A stretch of 62,663 bases of DNA from UHGV virus genome UHGV-1374842; one strand, given 5' to 3'. The notes beneath the pieces were generated by a model. It was not told where the DNA came from, did not search any database, and saw nothing but the letters and a program-made list of their open reading frames with translations. A program made the translations under genes and the position numbers. The DNA is from a virus. Below, piece by piece: positions 41,241 to 54,440 of this stretch (positions are counted from its first letter, which is position 1; each line of letters begins with the position of its first letter).

Positions 41241-44200
41241 ATGCCAGATAAAAAATATCTTATTGAGATTCCCGGAATGCCTGAAGGATCAGGCGTCTGG
41301 GATTCCGACAAATGGGAACGCAATAAAGATGCGTTCATGTCTGACTATCCTGAGGCCAATGTCTTCGAGCTTGGCGAATATGATGCGGAAGATACAAATG
41401 AGAACGACCAGATAATGCTGACGTTCGAGAATGACCCGGACTCTTCCGGCGTGTGGGATTCTGCAAAATGGGAACGCAACAAGGAAGCGTTCACGGCAGA
41501 TCATCCGGAAGCAAAGGTGAACCGCGTAAGATATGTGGATTACTGGGGCGACAGGGCTAGTGCTATTGAGAACAGACTGGCCGAGCTTGAAAAGCCGGAC
41601 GAGGAAAGGGCTGCAAGGCTTGCAGAGATTGGCTATTTTGACGACAATGAGAATGCAGTTAATCTTGATGCCAATCTGAAACCGGTATCTCAGGCAATGA
41701 AGGTCAATTCTGTCAGTGGTGATGTGGAGTATTTGGATCCAGCTGTAGAAGAGTTTTTCGCCAACGATGACGCCTACACCAAGAGACAGCTTGAAAAGAA
41801 TCAATTGAAGGCGGAGTACGATGCCAATCCGTCGGTTATCGCTCAAAGAGAATGGGAAGCGCAAAGAAAAGAAGCAGAGAAGGCTTACAGAAACGAATTG
41901 AAGCAGCAGATCACAGCTGACTACGAAGCTAACGTTGATAAGAATAAAGCCGCACGAGGCGGAATAGAGATAGACGGTGTGCCTATATATGGTCCGGCTT
42001 CGTTTGAGACTGAAAAGCAGGAGAAATATCTGGCCGCACTCCAGCTTCTTGACTTTGCTGAAAGGATGGAAAATGGAGAAAAGTTCTGGGAAGGTGTGGG
42101 ATACGGTACCACCAAAGCCGCCGTAGACTACGACGGGAAGGAAATGATACAAGTCGGTCTTGCATTCAAGAAACTTGAAGACCGAGGCGTGAACATCCTT
42201 GAAGCGACAGAAGAAGAGATCGACGAGGCTCTCGATCCTGAAGACAAGGCATTGATGCGCGCTTACCTCGAATACGAAAAAGCCATGTACGAGGCAGAAC
42301 CTTCCAATGCCTTTAAAGGAGGAGCGCAGTTTGGTGAAACAATTCCTTTCATATTGGAGTTCATTGCCACTGGTAACATCTATAAGGCCGGAGCGAAAAA
42401 AGGAATGGAGCTGGCTGGAAAGAAAGCTATCGGAAAGGGATTTGCAAAGTGGATAGCCAAAAGTGCAGGGAAAAAGATTCCCACGCTGATGAAGCGAGGT
42501 GTCGCCAAGGCTTCAACCGGAACAATCAAGGCATTGAGTGGTACACTTACTCGTACCCTTGCCTCTCCTACCACATACACCAAGATGGCCACACCGAAAA
42601 TTCAGATCAGCAAACAAGGAGATGTATCTGTAGAAACTCACGCGGCAAGGGAATTCTTTGATCATTATATAGAGAATCTGTCCGAAATCTCCGGCGAAGG
42701 AATGGTGGCAGGTCTAGGTGGCGCTGCAAAGCTTCTGAAAAGTACCAAGATCGGCAAGATGCCGTTCATGAAGCTGGGTGAATGGTTTGGAAACAAAGCA
42801 GTATGGCAAGGCCTGTCTAAGCTCGGTGCTCAGAGTCTTCCAATTGAGGTCGCGGAAGAAATTGTAGGTAATGCTCTCAGATATATCACCGGAGTTGACA
42901 AAGAAGCGCTTGGGAGAATGTTTGAAAAGGATGAGTTTGCTTCGATGCTTATAGGTTTCGCCCCTTTGACAGTACTTGGTATGGGAACTTCTGCAGCCTC
43001 AATGGGTGCAGTAAACATCGGTGCAGCCAGAGCCGCGAAAAGGATGAGAGAAGTGCTCAATCCATACTATACCGAAGAACAGATTGACAACGTCATAGGA
43101 TCTATAGAAGGGGCAAAGACATCCGATGAGGTAGTAGAAGCATTGAGGCCTATTATGGTCGGTATGTATAATGCAACGCCGGAAGAGAAAACCGCGGTAA
43201 TGGATTACGGTATCAGCGTAGCCAAGAAGAAGGCAATGATATCCGCAAGAAACTTTCAAGAGATGCAGCTGTCTGACGCCTCTGTCAGACAGATCGAGGA
43301 TAACATCGGAAAGTTTTGGATAGAAAACGAAGACAAGACGCGAACAGTCCGTCAGGTGAATCTCAATGACGGAAGGCAAGTCTATATCGTTTCACAGCCT
43401 AACGAAGTAGGAGAGGTGGCCACTGTAGAGGTTGACACCGGAAAAAAAGGCATGGCGAAGCTTAAAGACATAAAGGAAGAAATCTTCAATTCTTCCCTCG
43501 AGTCATACGGAACGCGATTCGTCATGGCCGACCGCAAGGCTAAAGAGCAGGAGAGAATGGCAAACGAAAGACAGGAGCAGATAAATCTTGTCCGACAAAA
43601 CCTTGCCGCTCAGAAAGGTAAAATCAACCTCGGCACAGAAGGCTCTCCTATTATGGTTATAGCCGATGCTGAAAACGAAGCCGGAGTGCGTTACGTGGCT
43701 GAAAACGGATCAACCGGAAATCTGAGCTGGGATGCTGTCGCGGATGCAATGGGTACGCCTATCAGGGTGTTTACCGATTCTCAGATTGTAGAGCAGGAAA
43801 TAGCTGACATTGTTGCTCGCGATGCTGAAAGAAAAGCTCAGAGAGCGCAGCAGAAAGGGGACAATGCTGTGGCGGCAAACGAAGCAGTTGCTGAGGCTAG
43901 CGAGACTGTGGACGCTGTCGCTCAGGAGACAAAGCACATCCCTCTCAACGAAGACGGCACAGTGAATGAAGCTGCTTTCTGGGAGCAGGATCCGGAAGGA
44001 TACGCACAGTGGAATGACGAGCAGAACCAGGACGGAGGTGCCGATACCATTCAGCAGATCGAGGCGGCCAAAGCAGAGCTCACTGCAATGCTCAACGAGG
44101 CTCAGCGGGCTACATTGACATCGAATCCTGCCAACAGAAAGGCGGCAAAACGAGAGGTCAGCAGACTTACAGAGAGACTTGCAAGGCTTGAAGCACTCGA

Positions 44201-54440: not shown

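Follow-up and report, generated by a model that had tools for sequence, protein, structure and literature searches.

A giant polyvalent protein with exchangeable cassettes, encoded beside the portal gene of a temperate Bacteroidales phage

Polyvalent proteins carry two to 15 unrelated, mostly catalytic domains on one polypeptide (Iyer, Burroughs, Anand, de Souza & Aravind, 2017; PMC5512222). The ART-PolyVal and InPase domain families were defined from such proteins, which were predicted to be delivered, and zincin domains were proposed as self-processing agents for the class overall (PMC5512222). In another giant phage protein, N4 gp50, a domain that binds lipid at the N-terminus and a low-complexity linker of 100 residues are combined with an enzyme in the center, a C1 domain with an HExxH motif and a helical C2 domain of ~1,125 amino acids (aa) without structural homologue; the chain has been proposed to move as 'beads on a string' (PMC13434306). 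Here, we describe a giant gene of the virus genome UHGV-1374842, whose whole stretch of 62,663 nucleotides (nt) is referred to as the window henceforth. The gene is a single uninterrupted open reading frame (ORF) of 13.2 kb on the plus strand (41241..54440; 4,399 aa plus a stop codon). The protein belongs to the known polyvalent class, for which the domains ART-PolyVal and InPase are textbook examples. We propose, with a probability of roughly 0.7, that it serves a temperate, podovirus-like phage of Bacteroidales as a giant polyvalent protein, packaged and ejected with cassettes that would act in the host.

The protein resembles described polyvalent proteins (PMC5512222) in that unrelated catalytic domains lie on one giant phage chain, are shuffled among relatives, include ART-PolyVal, InPase and zincin-like domains, and are encoded among late or structural genes. 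It differs from them in that no DarA/DarB, ArdC-N, PBECR, LPD, MuF or MPTase-PolyVal match was found here, and in that its variable array is framed by N- and C-terminal parts that are fixed. In architecture, the closest analogue appears to be N4 gp50. Each is a multi-thousand-residue protein of a phage that is short-tailed (probably so here) with small neighboring genes, which in N4 encode ejection proteins. Both include an N-terminal region, a linker of low complexity, an enzymatic middle part, a zincin-like domain with HExxH and a C-terminal module of ~1,100–1,200 aa without known homologue, and both are built of bead-like modules of a few hundred residues (166–524 aa here). However, PDB and Pfam searches revealed no RNA polymerase (RNAP) domain in the present protein, which has an exchangeable multi-enzyme array in its place; the two C-terminal modules have no detectable sequence similarity, and the present phage is a temperate one with anaerobic Bacteroidales as hosts.

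Among cultured phages, the closest relatives are BKO1-TP3, BS-TP4 and BF1-TP2, temperate phages of Bacteroides whose portals are 34–38% identical to that of the window and in which a giant gene likewise follows two small genes. The BF1-TP2 protein gp68 (3,633 aa, annotated as 'hypothetical protein', PQ571263) is 65% identical in InPase, 42% in the ADP-ribosyltransferase (ART) module and 26% in the first zincin-like module, Zn1. In contrast, its domain order differs, it has no M1 module, C-terminal module or D[IV]R[FY]S junction (all described below), and its gene is not adjacent to the portal gene. A megablast search with the giant gene against GenBank phages gave no match.

The ORF is a genuine, selected coding gene. 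Over window positions 39377–62658, a metagenomic contig (L071) is 90–92.6% identical at the DNA level and keeps the giant frame. Between these ~91% identical genomes, the giant gene as a whole has a ratio of nonsynonymous to synonymous substitution rates (dN/dS) of 0.10, and no module exceeds 0.19; constraint is strongest on M1 and the C-terminal module. Hundreds of independent assemblies encode homologues of 3,000–6,000 aa. A first-pass annotation, made from the DNA sequence alone, had proposed one long ORF at this location; the 4,399 codons without interruption bear this out, and the conserved frame, the low dN/dS and the independent assemblies answer its concern that sequencing errors might have produced the frame. 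The short strings that it had singled out were all recovered in the translation where it had placed them, namely HEAVAH (aa 1068; nt 44442–44459), HENTH (aa 2104; nt 47550–47564), YHGT (aa 2313), GHYYW (aa 2331), NEYEG (aa 2408), DHIDVYL (aa 2517) and VFVIDQ... (aa 2532).

Searches of Pfam with the whole protein and with ten overlapping 600-aa tiles (E ≤ 10) returned two families only, ART-PolyVal and InPase. PHROGs matched through InPase-containing families only, PDB searches recognized only the InPase region, and NCBIfam gave no match anywhere in the protein. The ART family proposed by the first-pass annotation was thus found by profile, InPase came in addition, and the MuF or LPD domains that it had listed as further candidates were absent from these scans. 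At least nine separate modules lie on the chain, several of them enzyme-like, and the unrelated, mostly catalytic domains comprise ART-PolyVal, InPase, zincin-like Zn1, an HExxH module and the enzyme-like M1. The window also encodes a portal protein, TerL, an integrase and an endolysin, placing the giant gene in a phage. Relatives were collected by searching a 5.8-billion-protein database with sub-regions of the giant protein as queries; the giant ORFs of related Bacteroidales phages show the domain shuffling typical of polyvalent proteins. Together with the two domain families, this shuffling upholds the polyvalent interpretation.

The ART module (47934..48563, plus strand; 210 aa) comprises a leader (aa 2232–2303) followed by ART-PolyVal (aa 2304–2437; PF18760, E = 5e-17; Tox-ART-HYD2 clade), which scored 63.5 bits on the whole protein and 69 bits on the tile against a cutoff of 31.2. 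In an alignment of ART homologues, H2314 and Y2333 occupy conserved columns, and D2402 belongs to a 'yDG' column that 60% or more of the sequences share; NEYEG is not conserved. The active site of this clade has been described as His on strand 1, Tyr on strand 2 and Asp on strand 5 (PMC5512222). Since D2402 is conserved, NEYEG is not, and the arrangement fits this description, the triad is more likely H-Y-D than H-Y-E. Of the H-Y-E triad proposed earlier, the family and the His and Tyr columns therefore stand, and D2402 probably takes the place of the acidic residue in NEYEG.

The ART leader is also found in crAss-like phages. Its aa 2246–2300 (nt 47976–48140; …APNGQPTKLTADQW..VRT.NF..WFGDW…) are 57–65% identical to segments of crAss-like giant proteins, whose annotations name either an RNAP subunit or a fusion of an RNAP-associated protein with a zincin protease; the leader also matches a 'methyltransferase' of a Shewanella phage.

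The InPase module (48564..49082, plus strand; 173 aa) matches PF18823 over aa 2457–2590 (E = 1e-58) with 197.5 bits against a cutoff of 26.8, covering positions 1–134 of the 135 in the model. This region is homologous to the C-terminal part of the portal protein gp19 of Pseudomonas phage Pa193 (9b41, E = 3e-30). The C-terminal tail of the Pa193 portal is a virion component that the electron cryo-microscopy map does not resolve (PMC11042391), and an InPase–portal fusion was also noted for the polyvalent class (PMC5512222). Its fusion to the C-terminus of the Pa193 portal associates the InPase domain with the head in another phage.

Two modules carry HE..H motifs. In Zn1 (44214..44960, plus strand), the HExxxH motif (H1068, E1069, H1073) is invariant across 26 aligned sequences, as are E1120 and E1127, which lie on helix 123–140 of a structure model and, by sequence and position, are candidates for the third metal ligand. 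The predicted structure of Zn1 has a zincin-like fold carrying the invariant H, E, H, E and E; its fold matches include lugdulysin, MATCAP, Wss1, Spartan, HtpX, thermolysin and neprilysin. M49 dipeptidyl peptidase III provides a precedent for HExxxH. In Zn2 (47244..47933, plus strand; 230 aa), a strict HExxH (H2104, E2105, H2108) and the downstream E2153 of an invariant E2153-M2154 pair are invariant in 8 of 8 sequences; HENTH is thus a conserved, true HExxH, with E2153 as a candidate, by sequence and position, for the third ligand. The first-pass annotation had counted two HExxH modules. HENTH proved strict and conserved, but HEAVAH reads H-E-x-x-x-H, leaving one strict HExxH in the protein. 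That neither an ART nor a zincin fold would be detected, as it had allowed for, is contradicted by the ART-PolyVal profile match and the zincin-like Zn1 model. Homology between Zn1 and Zn2 is not claimed: their BLASTP and hhalign alignment was not significant (hhalign colinear, E 0.014, probability 3%).

The central 1,900 residues are divided by a short peptide, [DGE][IVT]R[FYM]S, into M1, M2, Zn2, ART, InPase, M6 and M7. Seven copies of this junction motif lie exactly between modules, compared with 0.06 expected by shuffling: DVRMS (45174..45188, aa 1312), DIRFS (46746..46760, aa 1836), DVRFS (47244..47258, aa 2002), GTRFS (47934..47948, aa 2232), DIRFS (48564..48578, aa 2442), DIRYS (49083..49097, aa 2615) and DVRFS (49740..49754, aa 2834), all on the plus strand. 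Upstream of each junction is an acidic stretch enriched in flexible amino acids, and the DVRMS residues are disordered in the M1 model, with a predicted local distance difference test (pLDDT) score below 50. In related giants, the motif also marks module borders; a protein has 1.02 copies on average, where 0.10 would be expected, and the maximum is seven. The Arg and Ser codons differ among the seven junctions of the window; conservation therefore acts on the peptide, and DNA-level recombination sites were rejected as its cause. A prohead-protease signal common to virion proteins was likewise rejected, since the strict motif has no other occurrence in the six frames of the window outside the giant ORF.

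In a logo of 160 junction sites from related giants, approximately one-quarter to one-third of the sites have the longer peptide N-[VI]-I-P-L-S-E-R-F-N-[PT]-E-x-x-D-[IV]-R-[FY]-S, which the GenBank records MW202426 and MT836673, of two unrelated phages, contain as well. In polymorphic toxins, a short peptide (VENN in CdiA, PxxxxDPxGL in Rhs proteins) stands at the border of the variable modules, and the Rhs motif is also a self-cleavage site. The junction described here is similar in being a short conserved peptide at a module-exchange border. It differs in occurring up to seven times in one protein rather than once before a single C-terminal toxin, in that its codons are not conserved, and in that cleavage at the motif is a proposal. 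Full-text searching of the literature with four forms of the motif turned up nothing relevant, and the parts of PMC5512222 that discuss linkers yielded no D[IV]R[FY]S junction.

Comparison with the giant protein of L071 (P0132) links the junctions to cassette exchange. Most modules of the two proteins are 96–100% identical, with two exceptions. First, L071 has an additional ART-like cassette of 196 aa, inserted exactly between '...AEGE|DVRFS' and '...EKS|DIRFSART' at the site of the aa 1836 junction. Second, the ART core (aa ~2313–2418) is replaced: L071 9363–9675 and window 48177–48494 encode sequences with 23–35% aa identity and no DNA similarity, between flanks that are identical in the two genomes. 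The latter exchange looks like allele swapping or diversifying selection on an effector. Synonymous divergence between the two genomes ranges from 0.011 (C2) to 0.34 (M2), and this variation between modules identifies the giant gene as a mosaic formed by recombination. The cassette indel and the exchanged ART catalytic core within a 91%-identical genome pair amount to a mosaic architecture among relatives, and one cassette and one ART allele separating such close genomes are the signature of an ongoing arms race.

The wider family shows the same design. The giants share the layout N1-N2-(Zn1)-M1-[variable cassettes]-C1-C2, in which N1-N2, M1 and the C-terminal module are constant and the cassettes vary. 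The C-terminal module (50841..54437, plus strand; aa 3201–4399, 1,199 residues) is conserved, with 125 homologues at 35–72% identity that differ in their N-terminal effector domains: they carry ART, PBECR1/3, MuF_C, LPD3, LPD23, Kinase-PolyVal and RadC. The module itself has no PDB, Pfam, NCBIfam or PHROGs match; weak apolipoprotein-type matches are the only hints of helical structure, where the first-pass annotation had proposed long coiled coils, and one segment (aa 4064–4094) is moderately hydrophobic. It is present in 69 loci of species-representative genomes, nearly all of Bacteroidales (Muribaculaceae, Prevotella, Porphyromonadaceae and Bacteroidaceae). In approximately 45 of the 69, the portal gene comes next after the giant ORF, which usually exceeds 4,500 aa, and TerL lies beyond it on the minus strand. 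Phage effector pre-loading and exchange can be studied cleanly in this family, a natural system with constant ends, exchangeable cassettes and a recognizable junction; its giant proteins take up a fifth of the genome in a widespread group of temperate Bacteroidales phages and are annotated as 'hypothetical'.

Several members of the family deserve mention individually. P0133 (4,323 aa) has the N-terminus, Zn1, M1, M2, Zn2 and ART in common with the window protein at 46–98% identity, but its last ~1,700 residues are unlike the C-terminal module, so that even this 'constant' end is replaceable. Five loci (L010, L019, L021, L024 and L068) are labeled Eggerthellaceae, Sphaerochaeta, Akkermansia, Anaerovoracaceae and Clostridium, and their portal and TerL proteins are 37–48% identical to those of the window, as is the case for the Bacteroidales loci; these labels probably reflect phage contigs mis-binned into metagenome-assembled genomes rather than true hosts. 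The cultured Prevotellamassilia timonensis Marseille-P2831 (NZ_LT629845.1) has two C-terminal-module loci (L009 and L056) ~58 kb apart.

M1 (45174..46745, plus strand; 524 aa) is the most highly conserved module and is very abundant. Used as a query, it retrieved 2,086 cluster representatives, including 835 with E ≤ 1e-30; almost all of the 2,086 are proteins of 3,000–6,000 aa. Its alignment contains invariant cysteines C1393, C1436 and C1439 in a C-x42-C-x2-C arrangement, an invariant VEDRRQ with the E-D-R-R-Q motif, and many invariant polar residues at predicted strand ends. The structure model (pLDDT 84.2, predicted template-modeling score 0.85) is alpha/beta and enzyme-like, with about six beta-alpha units, and a Foldseek search of the model against PDB gave nothing significant. 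M1 and 17 homologues showed no match to Radical_SAM or any other Pfam or NCBIfam family, a PDB profile search gave none, and the cysteine spacing is not the canonical CxxxCxxC cluster of radical S-adenosylmethionine (SAM) enzymes. Non-canonical CxnCx2C radical-SAM variants exist, for example some QueE proteins. A radical-SAM-like iron–sulfur (Fe-S) enzyme is a tentative lead; it is equally possible that the cysteines form a structural Zn site in a barrel enzyme of a novel kind. Were the Fe-S reading correct, phages of anaerobic gut bacteria would inject an oxygen-sensitive radical enzyme as a pre-made infection factor.

How the protein might work can be outlined from gene position and analogy. 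We infer virion packaging and co-injection from the portal-adjacent synteny, the InPase–portal fusion precedent and the resemblance to N4 gp50. The chain consists of a constant N-terminal part (~1,300 aa, ending in Zn1), M1, the variable cassettes (M2, HExxH Zn2, ART-PolyVal, InPase, M6 and M7), separated by flexible acidic linkers ending in D-[IV]-R-[FY]-S, and the constant ~1,200-aa C-terminal module. It would be loaded into the capsid during assembly and exit together with the DNA, via portal and tail, as flexibly linked 'beads on a string', as proposed for N4 gp50, with the constant N- and C-terminal parts serving packaging and ejection. In the cell, the cassettes may act on host targets, which the first-pass annotation took to be host defenses: ART would ADP-ribosylate host proteins, and InPase would hydrolyze pyrophosphate or a nucleotide-like signal. 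More speculatively, one or both zincin-like domains might cut the chain at D-[IV]-R-[FY]-S and release the cassettes. Given the self-processing role proposed for zincins of this class (PMC5512222), the junction motif is a concrete candidate processing site.

Several observations weigh against this proposal. No Phage_Mu_F or MuF_C match was found in the giant protein with Pfam, MuF being the usual head anchor of phage polyvalent proteins, and MPTase-PolyVal matched neither HE..H region (E ≤ 10 on the 600-aa tiles). More than two-thirds of the protein (N1-N2, M1, M2, M6, M7 and the C-terminal module) has no Pfam, NCBIfam or PHROGs match, and ~70% is without assignable function. The processing step in particular is challenged by the N4 virion RNAP, which is packaged unprocessed (PMC5512222), and by the rarity of the junction motif in the distant family: most of the 69 loci have 0 copies, so it cannot be a universal requirement. 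We consider it doubtful that M1 is an injected non-canonical Fe-S radical enzyme or that the junctions are self-cleavage sites of a phage 'polyprotein'; either would be a new principle for tailed phages. If self-cleavage were real, a DNA phage would make a polyprotein that is cut into free effectors after ejection, at the same junctions that mark cassette exchange.

The alternative that fares best is that the giant, in the manner of N4 gp50 or T7 gp16, serves mainly as a structural protein of the ejection apparatus (ejectosome), its constant N- and C-terminal parts and M1 forming a trans-envelope conduit or digesting the cell wall. The enzyme cassettes would then be accessory passengers, and the junction a conserved linker that lets the beads fold independently, without proteolysis. 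The constancy of N1-N2, M1 and the C-terminal module beside variable cassettes agrees with this, as do the strongest constraint on M1 and the C-terminal module, the single moderately hydrophobic segments in N2 and C2, and the same three-part logic in N4 gp50, which is packaged unprocessed; a podovirus-like phage would also need ejection proteins. Yet no lysozyme, transglycosylase or membrane-protein signature appeared in any library searched with the giant protein, and no segment has typical transmembrane hydropathy. An integral membrane protein was rejected on the latter ground, as no Kyte–Doolittle window reaches 1.5. The conservation of two zincin-like domains with intact metal-binding motifs would also be left unexplained, and we judge this alternative unlikely.

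Less plausible still is an unpackaged host-takeover protein, synthesized at a late stage or in lysogeny and active in the cell that makes it, with portal adjacency reflecting only operon organization. The lack of MuF or any other known capsid-targeting domain in the Pfam searches would suit it. However, the position among virion-associated genes directly upstream of the portal gene is kept in ~45 loci, InPase is head-associated elsewhere, ART-PolyVal and InPase were described from proteins predicted to be delivered, and effectors acting in the producing cell need no fusion into one 480-kDa chain; we regard it as improbable. A tape-measure or tail-fiber protein, or an artefactual fusion of structural genes by sequencing errors, for which size alone and a weak TMP_2 match (E 0.15) of a single M1 homologue speak, is effectively refuted by independent assemblies that keep the frame over 13 kb under purifying selection, by the enzyme domains, and by the absence of any tape-measure, tail-fiber, tube or sheath family from the libraries searched. 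The packaged polyvalent effector array thus remains our preferred interpretation.

The giant gene lies among virion-associated genes. Two small co-oriented genes, 39464–40150 (228 aa) and 40153–41229 (358 aa), lie upstream on the plus strand and are syntenic with it: the same pair precedes the giant gene in L071, and a homologue of the 228-aa product, which has weak matches to virion structural PHROGs, lies upstream in L039 and L042. Downstream, after 78 nt, follows a P22-like portal gene (54518–56452, plus strand; PHROG 156, E = 7e-58; Pfam PF16510, E = 2e-34) and then TerL on the minus strand. The ORF map and the portal matches thus agree with the placement given in the first-pass annotation, directly before the portal and after two genes. 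An integrase (37631–38848, minus strand) was identified by library match, a repressor-like gene and an endolysin are also encoded, and 60772–62358 has a weak SU10-like major capsid protein match (22.2 bits, just below the Pfam cutoff of 24.1). Non-exhaustive PHROGs scans of 30 ORFs of the window revealed no tube, sheath, chaperone or tape-measure family, in line with the earlier remark that tail tube and sheath genes are missing and, as Pfam found no tape-measure family in the giant protein itself, with its view that a tape-measure identity is implausible. The integrase, repressor, endolysin, portal and TerL genes and the lack of those tail families in the scanned ORFs show that the element is a temperate phage, probably short-tailed and podovirus-like.

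The remaining parts of the protein complete the chain. An N-terminal tandem repeat (41280..41519, plus strand) noted in the first pass was corroborated: its cores, aa 14–41 and aa 66–93, are identical at 20 of 28 positions (score 119 vs. 25 ± 5 for shuffles), and the duplication is kept in the orthologues P0130–P0143. It lies within N1-N2 (41241..44213, plus strand; aa 1–991), an acidic conserved region with a Gly/Ala/Lys-rich stretch and a single moderately hydrophobic segment by hydropathy (aa 566–596), which is common to ~10–15 giants with an MPDKKYLI-like start and has no Pfam or NCBIfam match. M2 (46746..47243, plus strand; 166 aa, motif GY.LPDG..LDFS...DHR) has 29 homologues in other giants, and M6 (49083..49739, plus strand; 219 aa, motif YNPY.H...LN.QF) has 34 with invariant columns; both are of unknown function, with no PDB or Pfam match. 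M7 (49740..50840, plus strand) is acidic and passes into an ~80-aa low-complexity Gly/Ser/Asp/Glu linker (aa ~3125–3205). PDB sequence and profile searches with the C-terminal module, Zn1, M1, M2, M6 and Zn2 gave chance-level matches only, Pfam scans of all sequences in the alignments of M1, M2 and M6 produced scattered single-member noise, and a single-subunit RNAP was not found among Pfam or PHROGs RNAP families or by matching to the solved N4 RNAP chains. In the Pfam, NCBIfam and PHROGs libraries and the searchable literature, we could not find the junction motif with its link to the cassette indel, the HExxxH zincin-like family, the abundant M1 or the portal-tied C-terminal module. M1, the C-terminal module and the HExxxH domain are conserved, under strong purifying selection and outside Pfam, NCBIfam and PHROGs, which makes them targets for biochemistry.

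Elsewhere in the genome, L071 genes beyond the capsid gene (23846–25579) match window positions 1–1384 at 72% identity. The window thus appears to wrap around and is probably a complete, circularly permuted phage genome of ~62.7 kb; it contains no exact terminal repeat longer than 10 nt. GC content varies from 0.39 at 8–10 kb to 0.50–0.53 at 26–32 kb, and the sign of the GC skew flips near 14–16 kb and near 36 kb, where gene orientation switches, a pattern that suggests a mosaic composition. Two adjacent ORFs, 12772–13242 (156 aa) and 13255–13776 (173 aa), both match phrog_19255 (function unknown) and resemble a tandem duplication. The second-largest gene of the window (14108–16873, minus strand) encodes a 921-aa product that has no Pfam domain and matches phrog_32516 (function unknown) with E = 9e-102.

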